Origin: a virus
Taxonomy: Duplodnaviria > Caudoviricetes
Length of the DNA stretch: 64,000 bases
Virus record (IMG/VR): IMGVR_UViG_3300028886_000036
Location: 64,001-128,000 of that record
Reading direction: 5' to 3' (one strand)
Below the pieces are notes generated by a model that ran no database searches, was not told where the DNA came from, and worked only from the letters and a program-made list of their open reading frames with translations. Shown here piece after piece: positions 12,918-50,308 of the stretch. Every line of letters starts with the position of its first letter. The first letter of the stretch is position 1. Made by a program: the position numbers and the translations under genes.

Positions 12918-15900
12918 ATGGCAATTGGAAGTGTTTGGGCAGATGTTCCTGTAGTTAGGGGTAGTGATGAGTATGGTATTGGCGCTGATTTTATTACAGC
13001 CCAAGTTAATACAGAACAAAACGAAGCTTTACAATCTAGAGATATTTACTTACTTAACAAGTTTAAAGAGTATTATGATAAAGCTCACATAGATAACTTA
13101 TTCAGTAGATACAGTACTAATCTTGATTGGAAGGAAACTTTAAATAGTTATGAAGATATTATTGAGAAATACCCTGCTGGATTAAACTGGAAATCTGATG
13201 TTAATACTTATAGTGACTTATTTACGTTGCCAGCTGAAAATGATGCTGTAGTTAATGTAAAAGATGTTCAGGACAAGTATTATTTTATTTATTTTAAACC
13301 AGATGAAGATTCTGAAGGCGCTTGGACTCAGATAGATCCTAATGCTTATAATAATAATATAGTTGAGGAGCTTCCAGCATACCCATACATTTATTTAAAT
13401 GGGTATTGGCAAGAGTTAAATATAGATGAGTTTTCTGAATTAGAACAGTCTAAATTTTTACCGAAAGGATCTGTAAGTAGTTATGGTGAAATAGCCACTA
13501 CTTATCCCGAACCAGAAGATTATTGGGTAGTTAATGTAGTAGATCCTAATAAAGACTTCTTATTCAAAGGACAAGTAGATTATTATGAAGATATAGCTAC
13601 TGAATATCCAGAACCGGAACATAATTGGTTGGTAGAAGTTATCAATCCAGATAATAATTGTACTTATAAGTATAATGAAGAAAACAATAAATGGGAAAGA
13701 TTTGGTGAAAAGTATAAACCAGAAGATGGATGGGTTGTTAATACTATAGACACTAATTATACTTATAGATATGATATAGAAAGTGACTCTTGGATTGCAA
13801 TTAGTGCTAATGCTATTCCTTTAGCTACTGAAGAAAATGATGGTTTATTAAGTAAAGAAGATTATGCCTATATTAGACAAATAGAGGGAGAAATACTTCC
13901 TAATATCTATTTGGCTATAAATGAATTAGAGCAAAAGATGTTCCCATTAGGAACTATAGTTCCTTATGCTTTTGATACAAACACTCCTCCACCTGGTTTT
14001 GTTTTTGCTGAAGGCTTATTATTAAGACGTGACGAATATCCTGATATGTGGGAAAGATTATATAAAGAACCTACAGATGATGATCCTGGATATGATTTTA
14101 CAGTTGCTGATTATTTAAAAGATGAATATCCAGGTAAATTTACAAATGGTGATGGAGAGACTACATTTAGAACTCCTGATTTAAGAGGATGTTTCTTAAG
14201 AGGATTAGATTTAGGTAAAGGCTATGAAAAATATGAAAGACCATTTGGCTCTTATCAAAACGATGGAATAGGAGAACACGATTATGAATTAGAAGTTACT
14301 GGAGTTGGATCTGTAGACGAACCTGCAATTGAAGGCCATAGATTAACTATAGCTGGAACAACACCTAATGCTATTTCAGAAACTTCTATAATAAAAGTTC
14401 ATACTTCTGCAGATGCTGAAACTAGACCAAAGAATATCGCTGTTAGGTTTATAGTTAAAGTTATTCCAACTGAAAACTTACCAACAATGGCAGATAATAA
14501 TGCTCCTACTATTGTTGTACCTATAGATGCTGATACTCTTAATGGACATCCTTCATCTATATCTGCTACTCCGGGAGCAATACCAGTTGCAGACAATAAT
14601 GGTAAATTAGATAACTCTTGGTTTAATTTAGATTCTATCTCTACAGAAAACTTTGTTCAAAGAAATGAAGTTTCTAGAAAAGATGCTTCTCCAGCAGAAT
14701 CTTCTAATTTAATTCCAGTATTGAATGACTCTGGGTATGCTGATGGATGGATTAGTTTAGTTACTGAAGAAGATGTTGATAAATGGATTAGATTCTTTAG
14801 TAATGATAATTATGATATTTCAGAAGAATCTTATGATGATTCAAGAGATCTTGAAAAGAACTTCTTAACACAAAAGAAATTTGTTAAGTTCTTAATTGGC
14901 TTAAAAGAGTTTATTAATACATTTAAACAGCATTATACTACTGAAGATATAACTCCTACTAATGAGCGTGGATATATTTCTAATGCTGAAAGAATTAAGT
15001 ATAGTGATAAATACACCAAGAATGAGACATATGAACTATTATATAATTTCTTATTAAGTTATATACCATTATCAGATGCTACTACTATACCAACTCCTGG
15101 TAAAATACCTATTGCTTTAGATGATGGTAAGTTAGATCCAGGTTGGATGTCAGATCTTTTCCTTAATAAGATAGGTGAAGATGGTGATACTGGTTATGCC
15201 GAAATAAGTGGTAGTAAAGATGTTCATATTAGAGGTGGTATAGTTGATAACACCTTAACTGGTTCTGTCAACTTACAAGGCGGTGGAACTTATAGCGTAT
15301 CATCAATATCTCCAGCTAAAGCAGTTGTATCAGGATATGATGCAGTTGAAAATAGGGGCGGTAATGTTGAGATATATGCTGGAAATGGTGGAGAAAACTT
15401 ATCATCTATTGGTGGATCAATAATATTACAATCTGGTTCTGGTAATTCTTATAATGGTACGGTAGATATTAACAATATTAAAGTAAACAAGAATAACACT
15501 ATTTATACTAATGAATTGAATTTAAGATTACAACAAAATGATGGTATTAACAATACTAACTATTTAGAATTAACCAATTCTGGGTTATCTTATGTGCATG
15601 ATAATTTAGTTAATGATAGTGATGATTTTGAGTTTACTCTTAATAATAATGGTACTGTAACTACTAATAGACCTAATGTATCTAATGGATTAACAATTCT
15701 TAATAATAACGCATTAGTTCCATTTGAGAATCTTCCTAAAACAGCTTTAGTTAATAATCTGGGAGATATTCTTCAGAACCAAGTTATAAATACCAATTTA
15801 GGTAATGTAATAGTTGCAGATATTGATCAGTCTACTACATTAACTATTGATGATGGTGTTTATACAAATGAAGCTAAAGAACTTACATTTGTTCTTACTA

Positions 15901-17009
15901 TGAAAGGCTTGTATAACATTACTTGGCCTGTCAATGTTAATTGGATGTCTGGTGTTAAACCTAGTATTGATTATGGTGAAACGGCTATTATAAAATTATT
16001 TAGAGTAGATAATGGTGAATGGATTGGATGGAAAGTAGGAGATAGTGTAAGTACTACTGGTACTTCTAAAGAAATTATAATAGATAAATATGAGGAACCA
16101 TTAAATGATTTTACTGGTACTGTACATAAGTATATTAGCAATATAACTTGGGCATCTGGTCAAGAACCACCTAAAGAAGATAGTTCAGTTTATATTGAAA
16201 CTAACGATATTGCCCCTGGAGAATCTGCTAATATTGTTGTTAGAGTTCCTTCAGATGCATATGGTACTATTACAGTTACTGTTACTAATGCAGACACCAC
16301 TGATGAAGTATACAATGAAACTATAACTCTTATAAATACAAGTAATACAATTGTTATACCCAATTTAACAATTGGTGATTATTTAATTGAAGCTACATAT
16401 TCTGGTAATGAATTCTATAATAGTAGTAGCGTTAACGCAGCTCTTTCAGTAAAGAAGCTGGATACATCTATTATTATATCTGCTCCTACAGAGGCTACAG
16501 TTAATGATAGATTAACAGTAGCTGTCAATGTTGCTGAAGATGCTACTGGAAGAATACTGATTAATATGCAGGATGAAGAGAATGCTAGTGCAAATATGAC
16601 TAATAATAGAATTCAAGAGAATGGTACTGTAACTGCTACAGTAAGAGCTGTGTATGGTGGTATTAATATTATTACTGCAGATTACACAGGAGATGATAGA
16701 TACAACAGTGCTCATGCTGAACAGATTGTTATGGTTGAAAAGTTACCTACATCGTGCTCAATTGATGCAGATAATATTACCGCTGGAGAAGATGCTTATA
16801 TTACTGTTAACGTAACTCCAATTGAAGCTACTGGTGATGTTACTATATCTCTTGATACAGGAGAAACTAGAGTAGCTGAGATAGTAAGTGGCAGTGTTAA
16901 CTTTGCTATATCAGATTTAGAAGTTGGCAATAGAGTTATTACAGCAGAGTTTAGTGGTGATAGAAAGTATAGCTCCAGCACTAATACAGCAGAATTTACA
17001 GTGAGTTAA
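12918..17009 (+). CDS. Tail fibre/collar protein with C-terminal Ig-like repeats
   Basis: FPLGTIVPY..PPGFVFAEG..TFRTPDLRGCFLRG..ETRPKNIAVRFIVK collar domain; three C-terminal Ig-like repeats (ATYSGNEFYNSS / ADYTGDDRYNSA / AEFSGDRKYSSS). Confidence 0.8.
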   Translation: MAIGSVWADVPVVRGSDEYGIGADFITAQVNTEQNEALQSRDIYLLNKFKEYYDKAHIDNLFSRYSTNLDWKETLNSYEDIIEKYPAGLNWKSDVNTYSDLFTLPAENDAVVNVKDVQDKYYFIYFKPDEDSEGAWTQIDPNAYNNNIVEELPAYPYIYLNGYWQELNIDEFSELEQSKFLPKGSVSSYGEIATTYPEPEDYWVVNVVDPNKDFLFKGQVDYYEDIATEYPEPEHNWLVEVINPDNNCTYKYNEENNKWERFGEKYKPEDGWVVNTIDTNYTYRYDIESDSWIAISANAIPLATEENDGLLSKEDYAYIRQIEGEILPNIYLAINELEQKMFPLGTIVPYAFDTNTPPPGFVFAEGLLLRRDEYPDMWERLYKEPTDDDPGYDFTVADYLKDEYPGKFTNGDGETTFRTPDLRGCFLRGLDLGKGYEKYERPFGSYQNDGIGEHDYELEVTGVGSVDEPAIEGHRLTIAGTTPNAISETSIIKVHTSADAETRPKNIAVRFIVKVIPTENLPTMADNNAPTIVVPIDADTLNGHPSSISATPGAIPVADNNGKLDNSWFNLDSISTENFVQRNEVSRKDASPAESSNLIPVLNDSGYADGWISLVTEEDVDKWIRFFSNDNYDISEESYDDSRDLEKNFLTQKKFVKFLIGLKEFINTFKQHYTTEDITPTNERGYISNAERIKYSDKYTKNETYELLYNFLLSYIPLSDATTIPTPGKIPIALDDGKLDPGWMSDLFLNKIGEDGDTGYAEISGSKDVHIRGGIVDNTLTGSVNLQGGGTYSVSSISPAKAVVSGYDAVENRGGNVEIYAGNGGENLSSIGGSIILQSGSGNSYNGTVDINNIKVNKNNTIYTNELNLRLQQNDGINNTNYLELTNSGLSYVHDNLVNDSDDFEFTLNNNGTVTTNRPNVSNGLTILNNNALVPFENLPKTALVNNLGDILQNQVINTNLGNVIVADIDQSTTLTIDDGVYTNEAKELTFVLTMKGLYNITWPVNVNWMSGVKPSIDYGETAIIKLFRVDNGEWIGWKVGDSVSTTGTSKEIIIDKYEEPLNDFTGTVHKYISNITWASGQEPPKEDSSVYIETNDIAPGESANIVVRVPSDAYGTITVTVTNADTTDEVYNETITLINTSNTIVIPNLTIGDYLIEATYSGNEFYNSSSVNAALSVKKLDTSIIISAPTEATVNDRLTVAVNVAEDATGRILINMQDEENASANMTNNRIQENGTVTATVRAVYGGINIITADYTGDDRYNSAHAEQIVMVEKLPTSCSIDADNITAGEDAYITVNVTPIEATGDVTISLDTGETRVAEIVSGSVNFAISDLEVGNRVITAEFSGDRKYSSSTNTAEFTVS

Positions 17010-17011
17010 TA

Positions 17012-17524
17012 ATGGGAACTCTTAGATATTTAAGAAAGGACTATCTTAGAGGTGATATTTTTAAGTCTATGAATGATAAGAGGTCTAATAAAATTAGACT
17101 TCCTAATGAAAACTTAGATCTTAATTCATCGCCAGTTCAGATAGATCCTCAAACGCAGTATCCTAATGTAGTATTTATTGATAATGTATTAGATAGTGAA
17201 GTCAACTATACTATGTTATATAATGCTAAAGTTGGTACTATAGTTCCAATTAAACTTGATGATGTATCTAATATGAAAAGTGACTGGATTAAATGCGATG
17301 GTAGTACTTATAATAAAGAACAATATCCTATGCTATTTGATTTATTGAAAGATGCTTTCTATAATGTAGATCTTAATGGTAACGAGACTCCAGTTTATAC
17401 TGATGAGTTTGTAGTACCTAAGATAGATAATAAGAAACTAGAGGATACTGAAGTAGTTTTTATGATCAAGGCAAAAGGTAGAGAAAAAGGTAATTACTAT
17501 TTAAAGAGAGATAATCAAACTTAA
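17012..17524 (+). CDS. Tail-collar domain protein
   Basis: VGTIVP..DWIKCDGSTYNKEQYPMLF..FVVPKI..FMIKA. Confidence 0.75.
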   Translation: MGTLRYLRKDYLRGDIFKSMNDKRSNKIRLPNENLDLNSSPVQIDPQTQYPNVVFIDNVLDSEVNYTMLYNAKVGTIVPIKLDDVSNMKSDWIKCDGSTYNKEQYPMLFDLLKDAFYNVDLNGNETPVYTDEFVVPKIDNKKLEDTEVVFMIKAKGREKGNYYLKRDNQT

Positions 17525-18131: not shown

Positions 18132-18925
18132 TGTTTAATAAATTACAGCAATGGTTATTGAAATTAATAGGTAGTAGATTTTCATCAGTATCTATTATAA
18201 TGGTCCTTGGGTTCTTATGTTACTATTTTAATATTTCTGCAGCTACCTTGTTTGAATGGTATCATGGGGATATTAGTAAACTTACTGTTGCACTTAGCGT
18301 TGGAGCTTTAGTTTCATTATATATTTCTGCGGATCTCATTATGAGTAGATTAAAACATATAGGTGATAAAGTAGATCGTCATGATGTGGTATTTAATTCA
18401 GCCGCATCTATTAATGAAGATAATAAAAAGAATTTAAAAGTGGTCCTTAAAAAGATTGACAGTATAATACAAGAACTTGGCAATAGTTCCAATGTAGTTA
18501 TTATACTGATACAGCAAAGCATCTATTTAGTTAGACCATCAATAGATATAGTTGCTAGCCAATATTTAGGTTTATCTGGAACTTTGAATGATCTTCAAAA
18601 ACAAGCCTTAAGAAAGCATATTGATAATGAGAAGATTAAATTTATTAGAAATATGTCTTACTTTGTTACTAGATTCTTTGATCCAGATTTAAGAACTACT
18701 ATGTTCAATCAAATGATTAAAACTAGTATTGACAAGGCCTTTGAAAGATGCTATGATGGTTTAGTAGAAATTTTAGATAATGGGGATACTGATTATGCTT
18801 CCAAATTATCTAAAGTTAGAGTAGTTGAAGATCAAATTGTACAAGACTTATTAAAAGGCGTTCTAAATATCGATTATGATATGATAGATCCTAAATTTAA
18901 AAGTAGGATGCCTGTTGACTTATAA
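18131..18925 (+). CDS. Membrane protein with two N-terminal TM segments
   Basis: Hydrophobic N-terminal helices; TAATG overlap with the upstream gene. Confidence 0.65.
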   Translation: MFNKLQQWLLKLIGSRFSSVSIIMVLGFLCYYFNISAATLFEWYHGDISKLTVALSVGALVSLYISADLIMSRLKHIGDKVDRHDVVFNSAASINEDNKKNLKVVLKKIDSIIQELGNSSNVVIILIQQSIYLVRPSIDIVASQYLGLSGTLNDLQKQALRKHIDNEKIKFIRNMSYFVTRFFDPDLRTTMFNQMIKTSIDKAFERCYDGLVEILDNGDTDYASKLSKVRVVEDQIVQDLLKGVLNIDYDMIDPKFKSRMPVDL

Positions 18926-18943
18926 GAAAGACGGTGATATAAT

Positions 18944-19234
18944 ATGCCAGGAGCTGCAAGATTAGGTGATAGTTGCACTGGTCATGGTTGATTTCCCAGT
19001 AGAGTTAACGTAGAAGGAAGTCACGATGTATATATAAATGGTATTCCAGCACATCGACAAGGAGATGGTTGGGCAGTCCATTGTTGTGGAAAATCCTGAC
19101 ACGGTAGCTCATTAGCTGCAGGTGCAGCTAGGGTATATGTTAATGGTAAACAATTGGGTTATATTGGTGCTCCAGTAGCCTGTGGGAGTTCAGTTTCTTC
19201 GGGTTCAAGCGATGTAATAGTTAATCCAGCTTAA
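18944..19234 (+). CDS. PAAR-repeat spike-tip protein (T4 gp5.4-like) with two in-frame TGA (putative selenocysteine) at codons 16 and 52
   Basis: MPGAARLGDSCTGHG*FPSRVNVEGSHDVYINGIPAHRQGDGWAVHCCGKS*HGSSLAAGAARVYVNGKQLGYIGAPVACGSSVSSGSSDVIVNPA; three PAAR-type repeats; SD GGTGA upstream; fills the gap between neighbouring genes; absent from the ORF track. Confidence 0.88.
19113..19130 (+). promoter_or_regulatory. Bacterial SECIS-like hairpin downstream of the second TGA
   Basis: TAGCTGC-AGGT-GCAGCTA perfect 7-bp stem starting 13 nt after TGA 19097-19099, with a GGU-containing loop. Confidence 0.65.
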
Positions 19235-19249
19235 GAAAGGAAGATTTAT

Positions 19250-19954
19250 ATGAGTTTTGTATTGCATGAGATATCAAACAATCTATTATTGAATGAAGAG
19301 GATATTCGTAATCTATTGCACAATCAAGTAATTGAAGATGCTAATAGAAATTTAGGTCTTAAAAAGTATAATGTTAATGCTACTGATATATGTGGATGTA
19401 TAAAGGCTCTATATTTTAAATTTAAGAATATAGAGCCATCTAATCCTCCATCCTATCCTTATTCTCCAATAGTACTTAATGTTGGTTCTGTTATACATAC
19501 TATAGTAGAAATGCTTTTAAAGCCAGAAGAAAAAGAAGTTTCTATTAGGTGTAGTCTACATGGTTTTAATTTGAATATGAGAGCAGATGCTATATATCAT
19601 AATAAGGTACTTCATGAATACAAAACTATTGATAATATAGATGAGAAAACTACTTGTAAAGAAGATCATTTAAAGCAAGCAGTAATTTATACGTATCTAT
19701 TAAATACCTATTGTAATAGATCTATTGAATGGATACAAATTATCTATATTGCTAGAGGTAAAGTTAATGTCAAGGTGTTTAACATACAAGTAACACCAGA
19801 ATTGATGTCTAAAGTAAAAGATAGATTAGACAGACAATTAAGTTATTTAAGAACTTGTTTAGATAGTAATACTGTACCTTCATTTGAAAATGAATTTTGT
19901 AAATGCAGTAAATTCTGTGAGTATTATGAGTTCTGTAAATCATTATCATCATAA
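19250..19954 (+). CDS. Cas4-like PD-(D/E)xK exonuclease
   Basis: ATDICGC..GSVIH..RADAI..EYKT..HLKQAVIY and C-terminal C-x-C-xxx-C-x5-C (probable Fe-S ligands). Confidence 0.75.
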   Translation: MSFVLHEISNNLLLNEEDIRNLLHNQVIEDANRNLGLKKYNVNATDICGCIKALYFKFKNIEPSNPPSYPYSPIVLNVGSVIHTIVEMLLKPEEKEVSIRCSLHGFNLNMRADAIYHNKVLHEYKTIDNIDEKTTCKEDHLKQAVIYTYLLNTYCNRSIEWIQIIYIARGKVNVKVFNIQVTPELMSKVKDRLDRQLSYLRTCLDSNTVPSFENEFCKCSKFCEYYEFCKSLSS

Positions 19955-21431: not shown

Positions 21432-21866
21432 TTATTTAAAGTTAAGCAATTTACCCAAAGATAATTTACATTCAGATGTAGTATTATTAGCGCCTTTAAA
21501 TTTACAAAAACTACAGTCATAGACATTATTGTAGCACCAATATGATACAGCGCTACAGTAATTAGCTAATATTGGTAAATCTATATGTGATTTACCTAGG
21601 TTTGGATCATATGCATAGTAAAGGAAATGCCCTGCAATTTTTAACTCTCTGTGTTTGTACTGCCATTCTTCAGGAGGGCTTTTTAAAGTACAACAGCCAC
21701 ATACATTAAACTTACAGGTACTACATCCTTTATACAAACAATGGTTATTTAAACAAATATACATTAACTTATTAGCTATATTGATATTGTTCCATAACAC
21801 TTTTTTATTAGTTGAAGTCATATGTTTTTTAAAGAAGTCTCTAAGCACGATGTACAATCCTCTCAA
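21432..21866 (-). CDS. Small Cys-rich hypothetical protein
   Basis: LNNHCLYKGCSTCKF..CSFCKF motifs; exact start uncertain. Confidence 0.6.
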   Translation of the reverse strand: MRGLYIVLRDFFKKHMTSTNKKVLWNNINIANKLMYICLNNHCLYKGCSTCKFNVCGCCTLKSPPEEWQYKHRELKIAGHFLYYAYDPNLGKSHIDLPILANYCSAVSYWCYNNVYDCSFCKFKGANNTTSECKLSLGKLLNFK

Positions 21867-26662: not shown

Positions 26663-27838
26663 TTGTTAGATAAAACTGTAACTGAAGGAACTAAATGGGT
26701 AGTTTATATACACACTTTCCCTAATAATAAAAAGTATGTTGGTATAACCAGTTTAGACGTTACTGAAAGATGGGGTAAAAATGGGTGTGGGTATAGGGGT
26801 CAAACAATAATATATAGGGCTATTAAAAAGTACGGTTGGGATAATATTAAGCACGAAGTAGTTATGTACAATCTTACTGAAGATGAAGCTTGTAAAATAG
26901 AGACATCTTTAATTAAAGAGCTAAATACTACTAATAGAGACTATGGATATAATATATTACCTGGTGGCAAATCTATGCCAATAACAGATAGATCTAAGCC
27001 AGTAATATGTCTTAATACTTTAGAGGTATTTAAATCTGAGAAAGAAGCAACAGAAAAATTAGGTCTTCCTAGAGGTAAAATAGGTTGTGTATGTAATGGA
27101 ACTAGACAACATTGTGGGAAAGATAAGAATGGTATACCATTAAAATTCGCTCATTATGAAGAAGGGAAAAACTATGAAAGGTATGTCTATTCTCCACCTA
27201 ATAGAACTGAAAAGCAAATTCTATTTGCTTCTTCAATTAAGAGGAAGGTTATATGTTTAAATACTTTACAAGTGTTTGATGGTGTTGGAGAAGCTGCAAA
27301 ATTATACAACATTAGTACCGGAAATATATCGAGAGCGTGTAAGGGTAATAGTAGATATGCTGGAAAAGACCCAATTACAGGCGAATCTTTATCTTGGGAG
27401 TATTACGATAAAGATAAAGTTTATGAAAAAAGTGCTTATAAATATAAAAACAACTCATATAGAGAAATTATATGTTTGAATACATTAAAGAGATATCCTT
27501 CAATATCTGAGGCTGGAAGGGTTCTAGGTATTATGGCCGATTCTATATGTAGAAGCTTGAAAGATTCCAACAAGAGAGTTGGTTTATTAGGCAAAGATGG
27601 ATATAGGTATTCTTTTTCATATTATGATTCTTCTAAAAAATATATTAAACTTCCTTTATTTAAAAAGTATCCTTCTGTATACTGTACAACTTTAAACAAG
27701 ATATATGAGGATATAAGAGATGCTATTAAAGATACTGGTATTAAAAGAAGCTATATATTAGATATATGTAATGGTAAAAGAGGTTACAGTTTTTCAAAAA
27801 GTTACAATAAAAAGTTAGTTTTTAAATACAATGTATAA
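26663..27838 (+). CDS. Free-standing GIY-YIG homing endonuclease with NUMOD1-like repeats
   Basis: VVYIHTFPNNKKYVGIT..RAIKKYGWDN..E..GYN; four VICLNT..F.S..EA repeats. Confidence 0.88.
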   Translation: MLDKTVTEGTKWVVYIHTFPNNKKYVGITSLDVTERWGKNGCGYRGQTIIYRAIKKYGWDNIKHEVVMYNLTEDEACKIETSLIKELNTTNRDYGYNILPGGKSMPITDRSKPVICLNTLEVFKSEKEATEKLGLPRGKIGCVCNGTRQHCGKDKNGIPLKFAHYEEGKNYERYVYSPPNRTEKQILFASSIKRKVICLNTLQVFDGVGEAAKLYNISTGNISRACKGNSRYAGKDPITGESLSWEYYDKDKVYEKSAYKYKNNSYREIICLNTLKRYPSISEAGRVLGIMADSICRSLKDSNKRVGLLGKDGYRYSFSYYDSSKKYIKLPLFKKYPSVYCTTLNKIYEDIRDAIKDTGIKRSYILDICNGKRGYSFSKSYNKKLVFKYNV

Positions 27839-27862
27839 TTCATTATAAAGGGTGTGATTACA

Positions 27863-30145
27863 ATACCTGCAAATAATATATTTCCTGGAGTTTATGTAAG
27901 TATTCAGGATAACTCAAACTATGTCGAAGCTATTCCAGGAGCCATAGGATTTATGTGCTTGCTCTCTGAAAAGGGCCCAGATAATAAACCAGTGATGGTT
28001 ACTAGTGTTTCTGACTTAATTTCTAAGTATGGTGAGCCATTAATTCGCCGTTATGGTCAGGGTTGGTATGTTGCTAAAGAGTATTTAGATACTTTAGGTA
28101 ATCTTTGGGTTATGAGAGTTCTTCCAAAGAATGCTACTTATGCTACATTAGCTCTTAAGCTTACACAGAATCCTGATGTAATTACCACATATAAGAGAAC
28201 CATTAAAAAAGATGAGAAGGATAATGATGTTGAAGTTCTTACTATGATTTCAAGAAAAACTACTGATGATGTAGTTCTTACTGTTGAAGATCTTAACAAG
28301 AAGCCTTTAACCGATCTTTTAGCCAAGGTTCCAACTGGTAAAAATGTTATTTTCCCAGCATCTGAAATTAATAGACCTGCCGAATATGAAAATGATATTA
28401 CTCTTATGGGTGCTGAAGCCGGTAACGCTGCTGGTGAAGATGAAAGAGACGGTGGAGAAACTGTTTTCAATTCACCTATACTTGGAAGTACTACACTTAG
28501 ACTTGATGGTCTTACATTAAGTCAGTATGCTTTCTCTGCAGATTATTCCGGGGTTTCTGATATTGAAATTAGAAATTGTAGAATACTTGGGCTTTCTGGT
28601 GCTACAGTTGAAGTTCCTGAAGAATTTTCTACTCAAGAAGCTCCTGTTGAGGAAGTAGAAGATCTTCCATTTGACACCAAGACTTTAACTGAAAGAAGTT
28701 TCTCATTTGTTAATGTTGAACTTGAAGATATTCATACAGTTCCTTCAATGGATTCTCTTCTTAATGGTGAGAATAATGCTGCTGATATTATCTTCTATCC
28801 ATATGGTAGAGGCGAGTATTATAATAGACTTGGCCTTAAGCTCACTAAGGCTAGAAAGTCTTACGATAATGCATTTATTTTAGATATCTACGAGCTTGGA
28901 GATGACTCCGCTTACGCTAATTTAGTTGAGTCTTTCACTGTTTCATTTGATATTGACGCAAAGGATATTTCTGGTTCGTCCTTATTTATTAAGGATGTTC
29001 TTGATATGTACTCAGATTATATCAAGTGCGAAGTTAGTGAAAATAGTGAGTACTTCGGTCATTATGAAGAAAATTCTGAAGAGGTTATTGCTCGTACTCC
29101 TGGGGATAGTTCTACAAAGTACGACTATGAGACTTTAGAAGTTAATTATGATGATTTAGCTATGGCCGAGATTGAATATCTCTCTGGTGGTAAAGATGGC
29201 ACTATGTATGACAAGAACGGTAATCTTGATTGGAATGCTGAAGTTGACGTTGACGACACTGGTAAGAAGAAAGAAAATATGGTTATGGCTTTATCAAATG
29301 CTTACTGTGGATTAAATGTCAATCCCGAGACTGGCGAGTATAACGATGAGATTACTGATACTGAAAATATGGACTTCACAGTTGTCTTTGATGCCGGTTG
29401 GCCTACTCCAGTTAAGGATGCTATAGTCGATCTTTGCGATTCAAGACAAAGCTGCTTTGGTTTCTTAGATAACGGTGTTGCTGCTGAAAATGGTAATAGA
29501 TCAGCAAAACACGCTATTGATAAGAGACTTACAGATCATAATTATAATGATTATAGAGTTGCGTTATATGAGCCATATACAAAGTTATATGATTCATTTA
29601 CCGGTACTTATTTCTGGGCTACTCCTATGATCCATGTTGCGTCATGCTTTACTAGAACTGCTAGAGATAAGAATATCTGGTGGGCTGCTGCAGGCCTTAC
29701 TAGAGGAGCATGTGCCGGTATTAAGGACTATAGATACAAGCTTGCTGGTGGTTATAAGGATATGTTCAAGGAAGATGAGCTTAATCCTATTATGAGATTT
29801 AACCAGGGCGGAGATTGTATCTGGGGCAATTGGACTACTCAGCAAACCCCATCTGCTCTTAAGAATATCCACGTTGTTCTTTGCTTACAGTATATTCATA
29901 GAGTTCTTGAAAGAAATCTTAAGCAGTATGTGTACGAGTTTAATGATGAATATACTTATGCTAAGATTAAAGACACTGTTAATGCTTTCTTATCTGATCT
30001 TGCTTCAGAAAGAGCATTAGAGAGCTTTAGTGTTAACGTTGGCGCTACAGAGTATCAGAAGAGAAATAATCAATGCAAGGTTGATATTGATCTTAAGATT
30101 ACTGGCGTTATTGAAATTATCAACGTTTCACTTAATGTTAACTAA
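27863..30145 (+). CDS. Contractile tail sheath protein (probable ATA start 27863; track start 27854)
   Basis: PANNIFPGVYV N-terminus, SEKGPDNKP, WWAAAGLTRG, ELNPI..IWGNWT..ALKNIHV..YVYEFND. Confidence 0.92.
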   Translation: MPANNIFPGVYVSIQDNSNYVEAIPGAIGFMCLLSEKGPDNKPVMVTSVSDLISKYGEPLIRRYGQGWYVAKEYLDTLGNLWVMRVLPKNATYATLALKLTQNPDVITTYKRTIKKDEKDNDVEVLTMISRKTTDDVVLTVEDLNKKPLTDLLAKVPTGKNVIFPASEINRPAEYENDITLMGAEAGNAAGEDERDGGETVFNSPILGSTTLRLDGLTLSQYAFSADYSGVSDIEIRNCRILGLSGATVEVPEEFSTQEAPVEEVEDLPFDTKTLTERSFSFVNVELEDIHTVPSMDSLLNGENNAADIIFYPYGRGEYYNRLGLKLTKARKSYDNAFILDIYELGDDSAYANLVESFTVSFDIDAKDISGSSLFIKDVLDMYSDYIKCEVSENSEYFGHYEENSEEVIARTPGDSSTKYDYETLEVNYDDLAMAEIEYLSGGKDGTMYDKNGNLDWNAEVDVDDTGKKKENMVMALSNAYCGLNVNPETGEYNDEITDTENMDFTVVFDAGWPTPVKDAIVDLCDSRQSCFGFLDNGVAAENGNRSAKHAIDKRLTDHNYNDYRVALYEPYTKLYDSFTGTYFWATPMIHVASCFTRTARDKNIWWAAAGLTRGACAGIKDYRYKLAGGYKDMFKEDELNPIMRFNQGGDCIWGNWTTQQTPSALKNIHVVLCLQYIHRVLERNLKQYVYEFNDEYTYAKIKDTVNAFLSDLASERALESFSVNVGATEYQKRNNQCKVDIDLKITGVIEIINVSLNVN

Positions 30146-47732: not shown

Positions 47733-48848
47733 TTGAAAACTTATGAAAATGAAAGACATTTTTTAAGAAGAAATATAGACACTATTTTTTTAATGATGGG
47801 AAATGAATGCAATCTTAATTGTAGATATTGCTTACAGCATCCTTTAGTGGAACATCCGATTTCTCACGAAATAAATCCAGATATATACTATTTTATTGAG
47901 CAAGTTTGTAGGGAGAATATTCATCTTCCTTTAGATCTTCGTTTTTGGGGAGGAGAACCTTTAGTTTTTCTCCCCAATATTAAAAATGTAGTATATGAAA
48001 TAGAACAAAGAGATTTGCCAGTATCATTTAGTACAATGAGTAATGGTAAATTAGTAACTGAAGAATTAATAGAATATTTTAAAGAACATAACTTTAACTT
48101 TGCTATTAGTTGGGATGGAAGAAATAGTATAAAGACTAGAGGATATAATGCTTTTGAAGATAAGAAAGATATATTATTTCAGATGCCACATCTTTGTATA
48201 AGTGCTGTATTAAGTGCTTATGCATATCCTAAACAAATCTGTGAAGATTTTCAACAGCTAGATAATGAATATATGGAAAAAACTGGATACCACATTGGAA
48301 TGAATGTAGATGACATATTTAATACCGGAGATCTACCAGAAGATCTTTTAAATTTTGATTATGACAAGATAATATCTGAAATGATTGAGCTAACTAGCAT
48401 TTTTATAGAAGATAGACTCAACAATAATATGCCACCAGAACATTATGCTATAAACCATTATATTGGAAATATCTATGATTCTGTTAAGCATTTTTATAGT
48501 GCTGGAGACGATGCTACCTGGAATAATATCTGGTGTTGCTGCGGTAATGGTTATACAACTTTAAATCTTGGTATAGATGGAACATTATATCCATGTCATA
48601 ATACTAGTCATAGTGTAGGAAATATTAAAGATTCATATTTTCGTTATCTTAAAAATGTAATTAAGTATGATACTACATTTAGGCACCATTATGATAATAC
48701 GTGTAACGATTGCCCAGCAATAAGTTATTGTCATGGCGGATGTAAGTTAGTGTCTGATGAGAATAGGAATAAAACATATTGTAATTTAAAAAAAGCTATA
48801 GTTCTGCCTGTAATTCAGATGCTTACTGAATTAGGAACAGAACTATAA
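47733..48848 (+). CDS. Radical SAM/SPASM-domain enzyme
   Basis: CNLNCRYC (CxxxCxxC), FWGGEPL, SNG, ISWDG; SPASM CGNG..GTLYPCH..CNDC.....CHGGC..YC. Confidence 0.93.
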   Translation: MKTYENERHFLRRNIDTIFLMMGNECNLNCRYCLQHPLVEHPISHEINPDIYYFIEQVCRENIHLPLDLRFWGGEPLVFLPNIKNVVYEIEQRDLPVSFSTMSNGKLVTEELIEYFKEHNFNFAISWDGRNSIKTRGYNAFEDKKDILFQMPHLCISAVLSAYAYPKQICEDFQQLDNEYMEKTGYHIGMNVDDIFNTGDLPEDLLNFDYDKIISEMIELTSIFIEDRLNNNMPPEHYAINHYIGNIYDSVKHFYSAGDDATWNNIWCCCGNGYTTLNLGIDGTLYPCHNTSHSVGNIKDSYFRYLKNVIKYDTTFRHHYDNTCNDCPAISYCHGGCKLVSDENRNKTYCNLKKAIVLPVIQMLTELGTEL

Positions 48849-49735: not shown

Positions 49736-50308
49736 ATTATAATATCTTTAAAACCCTGGTATTCTAAACTACATTTAAAAGTATTAGATACCATAAATAA
49801 AGACATTTATAAGTTTATATATCACATTTCATTAAGAAACGACTATCTTGGTCTTGTTATGAAATGGGATCAATCATGTATTGAAATAATAAAAGAAACA
49901 TTGTTATTTAAAGATATATTTTATAATATAGAGATTTCTAGTATTGAGGATTATGAAAGTATTAATCTTTCATGTAAAGGAAATACACACAAGTTTCATT
50001 ATTTTTGTGAAGTATCTAAATATAATGATCTAAAAAGTATCCCATGTTTAGGGGTATATATGAGCAATGGAAAGTTTCCTTATAATGTTAGGGAATCCAT
50101 AATAAATAAGGGTGAAAATCTTAAAAGAGCTATGTTTAAGTTTAGTTCTATAGAAGATTATATTAGGTTAAATGATTATACTTTATTTTTAGATACTGAA
50201 GGAAATGTATATGACAATGTTCTTTTTATAAACAATGTATGCAATATTTTCAATGACAACATTGATGTAAAGTTGTTTGACTACATAAGAAAGAGAGTGA
50301 GCGTATGA
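49736..50308 (+). CDS. Hypothetical protein, possibly a degenerate rSAM/SPASM-like accessory; probable ATT/ATA start ~49736
   Basis: Frame is open 41 codons upstream of the track ATG 49859, with SD GAAGGT; C-terminal LFLDTEGNVY..VCNIF resembles SPASM strands lacking Cys. Confidence 0.5.
   Translation: MIISLKPWYSKLHLKVLDTINKDIYKFIYHISLRNDYLGLVMKWDQSCIEIIKETLLFKDIFYNIEISSIEDYESINLSCKGNTHKFHYFCEVSKYNDLKSIPCLGVYMSNGKFPYNVRESIINKGENLKRAMFKFSSIEDYIRLNDYTLFLDTEGNVYDNVLFINNVCNIFNDNIDVKLFDYIRKRVSV

Follow-up and report, generated by a model that had tools for sequence, protein, structure and literature searches.

A phage PAAR spike-tip gene with two conserved in-frame UGA codons that are probably read as selenocysteine

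The stretch of DNA analysed here, a window of 64,000 nucleotides comprising bases 64001-128000 of the 275,466-bp IMG/VR virus record IMGVR_UViG_3300028886_000036 (32% G+C; CheckV completeness 100%), contains a gene for a PAAR-type tail spike tip whose reading frame holds two UGA codons, and the way in which these codons are likely to be read is the subject of this report. The sample labels of related sequences (STEW19, XIEF21 and TONG22) suggest ruminant gut metagenomes as the source of the phage. The gene lies on the plus strand, as do the codons and RNA elements within it described below, at 18944-19234, and comprises 96 codons from the ATG at 18944 to the TAA at 19232-19234. It is preceded, six nucleotides ahead of the ATG, by a Shine-Dalgarno-like GGTGA (18933-18937) that is read directly from the sequence, and the surrounding TGATATAATATG shows no change across all relatives (alignment A2). 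The first UGA is codon 16 (18989-18991), in the context GHG-U-FP (TGHG*FP), and the second is codon 52 (19097-19099), in the context GKS-U-HG (HCCGKS*HG); both are candidate selenocysteine (Sec) codons, with Cys48 and Cys47, respectively, as the putative partners of the encoded residues. The codons TGC, TGT and TGG serve normally within the same gene, Trp43 being encoded by TGG. The identity of the product is supported by a score of 51.8 bits against Pfam PF05488 (curated cut-off 27), by a match to phrog_281 (E 8e-29) and by PDB sequence matches to P1 UpfC (9vyi, E 5e-14), VCA0105 (4jiv, E 3e-9) and T4 gp5.4 (E 3e-5). A first-pass annotation of this DNA had described a PAAR gene with a Shine-Dalgarno sequence, two in-frame TGAs, a terminal TAA and an otherwise intact frame, and both the frame, which the sequence reproduces exactly, and the PAAR assignment hold. 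It had also named an intact second PAAR gene as an observation that would speak against recoding; a PF05488 profile search of the 275,466-bp genome found no second PAAR gene, 18944-19234 being the single match.

A protein search recovered 222 homologues, and residues were counted over 169 non-redundant homologues. The homologue consensus at the two sites reads GHGC[FWY]P and HCCGPxCHG, with Cys or TGA at position 16 in 134 and at position 52 in 119 of the 169, and the earlier supposition that both TGAs stand at Cys positions is thus borne out in most homologues. An assembly artefact can be discounted for the two TGAs. Both recur in L001, L002 and L003, which were assembled independently from other samples and are about 99% identical to the window in nucleotides, and diverged lineages carry them as well. 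Among the latter, L004-6 (75% protein identity to the window) have TGA at both codons, and TGA at codon 16 is combined with Ser at codon 52 in L007 (78% identity) and L248/L271 and with Val in L056 (68% identity); in L007, L056 and L248 the Ser or Val at codon 52 is accompanied by Arg47. The window's clade keeps UGA16 in six diverged lineages and UGA52 in two. A search with a clade-specific DNA pattern gave no match in IMG/VR and one further lineage among metagenome contigs.

The gene has evolved under constraint along its entire length. Between lineages of the window's clade the synonymous divergence (dS) is 0.8-1.7 and the ratio of non-synonymous to synonymous divergence (dN/dS) 0.11-0.23, and the corresponding ratio of proportions of differences (pN/pS) is below 1 in every comparison, mostly 0.1-0.4, for the segments ahead of, between and past the TGAs, which argues that the whole PAAR frame is translated. 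No other lesion is present in the gene across seven lineages. UGA-containing PAAR orthologues are found in other genomes and evolve under purifying selection, as is expected of bacterial selenoprotein genes. Such genes are easily overlooked: calling with genetic code 11 would split and miss them, and public catalogues hide them as Trp-containing or split open reading frames (ORFs), the catalogue proteins P0002-P0005, P0013, P0054 and P0121 being PAARs translated with TGA as Trp, so that the candidate Sec sites appear as Trp.

The first-pass annotation had placed the residues at positions 16 and 52 in the metal site at the spike tip, and this part of the proposal does not hold. PAAR proteins bind their metal through three His and one Cys, the metal being Zn in type VI secretion system (T6SS) PAARs and Fe in T4 gp5.4 (PMC10715212, PMC12407873). 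In the window, the alignment assigns this canonical site to His14 (18983-18985), His46 (19079-19081), His53 (19100-19102) and Cys80 (19181-19183). None of these four varies in alignment A1, and they fall on His and Cys positions conserved in 4jiv, 4jiw and 9vyi, so that the protein is predicted from its sequence to have the three-His-plus-one-Cys vertex site. In solved PAARs neither position is Cys: residue 16 is Gly, and residue 52 is Thr, Ser or Pro. By alignment, Cys16 and Cys52 are therefore subfamily-specific residues that pair with Cys48 and Cys47 and are not canonical metal ligands. Both putative partners are encoded by TGT (19082-19087), and their co-occurrence with positions 16 and 52 is nearly perfect. 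Across the 169 homologues, Cys or Sec is found at both positions 16 and 48 in 133, at a single one in 1+1 and at neither in 34 (Fisher 2e-33, phylogeny ignored), and at both positions 47 and 52 in 119, at a single one in none and at neither in 50 (Fisher 4e-44, phylogeny ignored). The 16/48 and 47/52 pairs are lost independently of each other, and many different sequence backgrounds show the same pattern. This co-occurrence suggests two cross-links, or two ligand-sharing residue pairs, beside the canonical metal site.

UGA occurs at four Cys positions in the PAAR family, namely 16, 52, 48 and 80. At least 16 PAAR genes outside the window's clade have TGA at codon 16 (U16 genes), 12 of them on phage contigs and 4 on contigs of metagenome-assembled genomes (MAGs). 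An IMG/VR scan with the pattern GHG-TGA-[WY]P contributed eleven more intact PAAR genes, with L024 in addition, and a scan of species-representative genomes contributed four more U16 PAARs, in MAGs labelled Bacillota, Fretibacterium, Opitutia and Porticoccaceae. In L244 and, independently, in L273/L274, codon 16 is TGT and the TGA stands at the equivalent of codon 48; these U48 genes (L244:130-429 and L273:511-825) have an insertion of 3 or 8 codons after codon 48. A low-GC PAAR gene (L275:580-873, also in L276 and L277) carries TGA at codon 16 and at the position of the metal-ligand Cys80; in this lineage, Cys11 is replaced by Gly and the next gene is GPW_gp25. In a tree that is poorly resolved, the window's clade has 100/100 support and includes Sec-type genes only, the U48 lineages branch from within U16 lineages, and the shift from U16/C48 to C16/U48 falls inside the window's clade. 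The alternation of TGA with Cys codons (TGY) among relatives, for which the first-pass annotation had suggested looking, does therefore occur, and UGA at four Cys positions together with a shift between partners is not what read-through by Trp would predict.

Downstream of UGA52, a SECIS-like hairpin with an 8-bp stem (19112-19119/19124-19131) and an AGGU loop (19120-19123) occupies 19112-19131, its loop starting 20 nt after the UGA. The consensus for the bacterial Sec insertion sequence (bSECIS) comprises a stem of 4-16 bp, a loop of 3-9 nt with a G within its first two positions, a spacing of 16-37 nt and a free energy of at most -7.5 kcal/mol (PMC13188914). When this rule was applied as a simplified scan, the hairpin satisfied it with its 8-bp stem, AGGU loop, spacing of 20 nt and -10.4 kcal/mol; for random TGAs of the same genome, a rule-conforming hairpin reaches -7.5 kcal/mol in 0.85% and -10 kcal/mol in 0.3%. 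The stem is also maintained by compensatory change, the pair 19117:19126 being U-A, A-U or G-C depending on the lineage. In addition, the third base is invariant in only 3 of the 26 four-fold degenerate codons whose encoded residue is conserved, and two of these are Gly60, which contributes the GGU of the loop, and Ala62 in the stem. The third such codon, invariant in five lineages, is Gly13 (GGT, 18980-18982), three codons ahead of UGA16, where the frozen third base may reflect an upstream context effect on UGA16.

A different arrangement seems to apply to UGA16. Single-sequence folds of the RNA that follows it vary among the lineages of the clade (z -0.7 to +0.4). An RNAalifold consensus, computed on five lineages and then on six once L248 had been added, instead proposes a long-range helix whose 5' strand at 19002-19017 (19002-19011 and 19015-19017) starts 10 nt after UGA16 and whose 3' strand at 19095-19110 (19095-19097 and 19101-19110) ends 1 nt before the hairpin. 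Across the lineages, 94% of the cells in this helix are paired and 6 pairs are altered on both sides, compared with 29-50% paired in slid controls, and its covariation score is 0.443 against 0.257 in shuffles, none of 500 of which reach 0.443. The window's own 147-nt stretch folds with the helix in its single-sequence minimum free energy structure (-49.4 kcal/mol, z -4.0), and both hairpin and helix are retained in L007, L056 and L248, in which codon 16 is the sole UGA. For L244 and L273, which carry U48, the G-rich 3' strand instead pairs with the C-rich insertion 11-13 nt after UGA48, and the hairpin formed in this way abuts the AGGU hairpin. These observations are compatible with a model in which one SelB-binding hairpin would be offered to any UGA positioned 10-13 nt upstream of the closing helix, a model built on few sequences that we put forward tentatively, giving it somewhat less than an even chance.

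Outside the clade, local hairpins accompany UGA16. In 14 of 15 distinct U16 genes, a hairpin of 5-8 bp places its loop 17-18 nt after the UGA, mostly in the form CC(C/U)UC-loop-G(A/G)(A/G)GG with the loop GGUC, GGUU, AGUU or GGCG; the loops AGUG and AGUUCA occur as well, and the stems show compensatory changes at third codon positions. In L192 the best rule-conforming hairpin lies at 28 nt, and the same stem as in the others is visible at about 17 nt. None of 30 homologues with Cys16 reaches a hairpin of -7.5 kcal/mol, and UGA80 of L275 is followed by an 8-bp stem with a GGU loop.

The genetic code of the phage appears to be the standard one. Of 285 ORFs in the genome, 192 stop at TAA, 59 at TAG and 34 (12%) at TGA, those ending in TGA including ORFs of 654-759 aa, and reading TGA as sense (as code 4 in the window, and also across the whole genome) opens one convincing new gene, the PAAR gene itself. 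At the loci of all U16 and U48 relatives the neighbouring genes show no interruption under the standard code, and many of them stop at TGA. The proposal of site-specific recoding rather than a change of code is hence well founded, since 34 of 285 ORFs stop at TGA and no other gene needs read-through. Eight tRNA genes are present in the phage genome (207811-228916: Ser-UGA, Gln-UUG, Asn-GUU, Thr-UGU, Leu-UAA, Ile-UAU, Pro-UGG and Arg-UCU), none with the anticodon UCA, and there is no suppressor tRNA; nearly all eight read A-ending codons, which hints at a host with a G+C content above that of the phage. Of the decoding genes for which the first-pass annotation had recommended a check, selA, selB and selD were not found in searches of the phage genome, and a tRNA-Sec model run over the genome gave as its sole match the tRNA-Leu(UAA), at 35 bits and under the cut-off. 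As the phage is thus without Sec genes, any Sec insertion would require those of the host.

With the gene, its conserved UGAs, the alternation of Cys and Sec codons, the residue pairing, the hairpin and the covariation of the helix all computed, we consider it likely that both UGAs are read as Sec inserted by the host's SelB, which is also the best reading available and the interpretation that the first-pass annotation had favoured. From these data we infer a decoding by SelB with incorporation of selenium, a remote use of the hairpin and a selenium-sulfur chemistry in the product, which might proceed as follows. The tRNA-Sec, SelA, SelD and SelB of the infected cell would decode both UGAs as Sec, with SelB being recruited by the AGGU hairpin at 19112-19131, which stands at a canonical distance from UGA52. 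For UGA16, the long-range helix would close off about 100 nt and thereby bring the hairpin to a point immediately ahead of a ribosome that has UGA16 in its A site. In the product, which would be the monomeric tip of the phage tail spike, the putative partners Sec16-Cys48 and Sec52-Cys47 would adjoin the His and Cys ligands of the metal site, and these two pairs would most likely make the tip stiffer, either as selenenylsulfide cross-links or as shared soft ligands. We propose that the RNA enclosed between UGA and hairpin would amount to 0 nt for UGA52, to a 23-nt hairpin for UGA48 in the sister lineages and to a domain of about 100 nt for UGA16. Here we speculate further that a single SECIS serves several UGAs through a helix starting 10-13 nt after each, that selenenylsulfide staples join Sec to Cys48 and Cys47 at the tip, and that selenium is a structural element of the virion, with infectivity tied to the host's supply; this combined proposal is the more doubtful one, and we regard it as possible but rather less than even.

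On the side of the host, SelD is present in only about a third of sequenced bacteria (PMC5029168). Of the four MAGs with a U16 PAAR, a small sample in which contigs may be mis-binned, three exceed the curated cut-off for SelB and two that for tRNA-Sec, with a third MAG just short of the latter (46.3, cut-off 47). The earlier claim that completion of the virion would depend on selenium goes too far, as T4 gp5.4 is dispensable for assembly and important for infection (PMC12407873). A shortage of selenium would thus be likely to yield less infective particles and not incomplete ones.

Several observations weigh against a reading of the UGAs as Sec or against parts of the mechanism. An Rfam scan of 18800-19400 with E up to 10 gave no match, and no local hairpin conforming to the bSECIS rule follows UGA16 in the window or in any member of its clade. 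The support for the long-range helix is limited to six lineages, from whose sequences the structure itself was derived, and we know of no bacterial precedent for a SECIS acting through a closed domain of 100 nt. For the site-16 hairpins of other clades, synonymous-codon shuffling gave an only mildly significant effect (mean z -0.47 vs +0.27), since the stem is already specified by the peptide motif P-S-V/A-E/G-G. Inserting Sec twice within a gene of 96 codons is expected to be inefficient, although one copy of PAAR per virion suffices. Finally, among the four MAGs that carry a U16 PAAR, one does not reach the cut-off for SelB, and a tblastn search with the sheath, run for a clue to the host, found best isolate matches below 28% identity.

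Among other explanations, the one that survives best is a programmed leaky termination, in which near-cognate tRNAs (Trp, sometimes Cys or Arg) would rarely read the UGAs and thus keep PAAR scarce, the RNA structure acting as a stimulator. UGA is the leakiest stop codon, public gene callers already render TGA as Trp in these genes, and a canonical local SECIS is lacking at UGA16 in the window's clade. It would also be in keeping with such a mechanism that one PAAR monomer suffices per virion (PMC12407873). We nevertheless regard it as unlikely, given that the UGAs are found only at Cys positions, four across the family, and never at Trp or other positions, that UGA shifts between the members of a covarying Cys pair that would be broken by Trp, and that the hairpins resemble bSECIS elements in their G-G/U loop and their spacing; in addition, very little product would be expected from two consecutive leaky stops. 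More improbable still is an insertion of Cys that depends on SelB and SECIS and uses a Cys-charged tRNA-Sec-like tRNA. Some bacteria are known to have tRNAs of this kind, and their use would be compatible with every sequence feature, including UGA at Cys sites, SECIS-like hairpins and SelB in the MAGs, but such tRNAs are rare, and a change of one base from TGA to TGY would spare the cost, yet TGA persists over dS >1.

A decaying pseudogene or a sequencing error, in a phage that would do without its tip protein, has very little in its favour. A single base separates TGY from TGA and T4 gp5.4 is non-essential in the laboratory (PMC12407873), but the same TGAs recur in independent assemblies, seven lineages are free of any other lesion, dN/dS is as low as given above, pN/pS past both TGAs is 0.15-0.38, and sixteen more intact genes with TGA at codon 16 exist outside the clade. 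A genome-wide reassignment of UGA in phage or host, to Trp (code 4) or to Gly (code 25), is the least probable of all and already contradicted, for although Gly16 would match the GHGGFP of solved PAARs and TGA terminates no more than 2 of the window's 46 large ORFs (both overlapping the next start codon, as ATGA at 50305-50308 and TTGA at 21863-21866), TGA terminates ORFs throughout the genome and at the relatives' loci, no other gene gains, no tRNA has the anticodon UCA, and Trp43 is TGG.

Tail-fibre and collar genes (12918-17524) are found directly upstream of the PAAR gene, and 27854-30145 encodes the sheath. Its conserved upstream neighbour of 264 aa has no match in Pfam, PHROGs or PDB, and matches of the neighbouring genes to the same three databases identified no gene near PAAR for a beta-helix spike of the gp5/VgrG type, the kind of spike that carries a PAAR tip on its blunt end. 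The gene right after PAAR (19250-19954) matches phrog_1706 ('CRISPR/Cas system associated', E 2e-24) and occupies the same position in L004 and L005. A homing-endonuclease-like ORF (26663-27838; phrog_314, with matches of GIY-YIG/HNH type) lies directly upstream of the tail sheath gene, and a radical SAM domain protein (47733-48848; phrog_1802, E 9e-25) is encoded amid large ORFs of the structural region.

If the two UGAs are indeed read as Sec, the use of this amino acid would extend to bacterial viruses and to a non-catalytic, mechanical role, and the infectivity of a phage would depend on a trace-element pathway of its host. Such phages would be restricted to Sec-competent hosts, and the UGA-containing PAAR gene could thus be useful as a marker of host range. 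As Sec stands at either partner of a Cys pair or at a metal-ligand Cys, the family would also represent a natural experiment that allows selenium to be compared with sulfur both as part of a cross-link and as part of a metal site. If one hairpin does serve two UGAs, one of them remotely, the rule that a bacterial SECIS immediately follows its UGA would have to be altered. New in the present case are the two UGAs per gene, the residue pairing, the swap of Sec between partners and onto a metal-ligand Cys, and the proposed shared-hairpin architecture.

The nearest structural counterparts are the PF05488 spike tips of T4 (gp5.4, 4KU0/5IV5), P1 (UpfC, 9VYI) and V. cholerae (VCA0105, 4JIV), which share with the window's protein a length of about 95 aa, three PAAR-like repeats and the ligand set; unlike it, the solved tips are without both extra Cys pairs, and no Sec has been reported in any of them. 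Phages with recoded stop codons, in which TAG or TGA is reassigned, likewise combine an in-frame stop in a late structural gene with a large phage genome and a gut-type habitat, but the present phage differs from them in that one gene is affected, no suppressor tRNA is present and 12% of ORFs still stop at TGA. With few exceptions, the selenoproteins known from prokaryotes are cellular redox enzymes. No phage or PAAR selenoprotein was found in the literature searched, and bacterial selenoproteome reviews, a predictor and a database (PMC13188914, PMC12013277, PMC13326102) leave phages and PAAR unmentioned. Among viruses of eukaryotes, selenoproteins are represented by the glutathione-peroxidase homologues of poxviruses (PMC6769590). 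These share with the PAAR case a viral gene that relies on the Sec machinery of the host, and differ from it in being captured host redox enzymes with a SECIS in the 3' untranslated region, whereas PAAR is a structural protein of a bacterial virus with an element inside the ORF. The closest parallel to the recoding itself is the bacterial Sec-UGA/SECIS system, with E. coli fdhF as its prototype, which shares the in-frame UGA at a Cys position and a stem-loop inside the ORF with a small G-G/U apical loop 16-37 nt after the UGA (PMC13188914). The present gene departs from the bacterial consensus model in having two UGAs 108 nt apart with one SECIS-like hairpin, UGA16 and UGA48 apparently reaching the hairpin across a closed helix. 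At UGA52 the likeness may extend to the sequence itself, as UGACACGG and the GCAGGU loop context are features that we take to be common to this site and fdhF. In contrast to bacterial selenoprotein genes, the carrier is a phage without Sec genes and the product a structural part of the virion instead of a redox enzyme. Thus, the recoding looks like ordinary bacterial Sec insertion, whereas its carrier and the role of its product do not.

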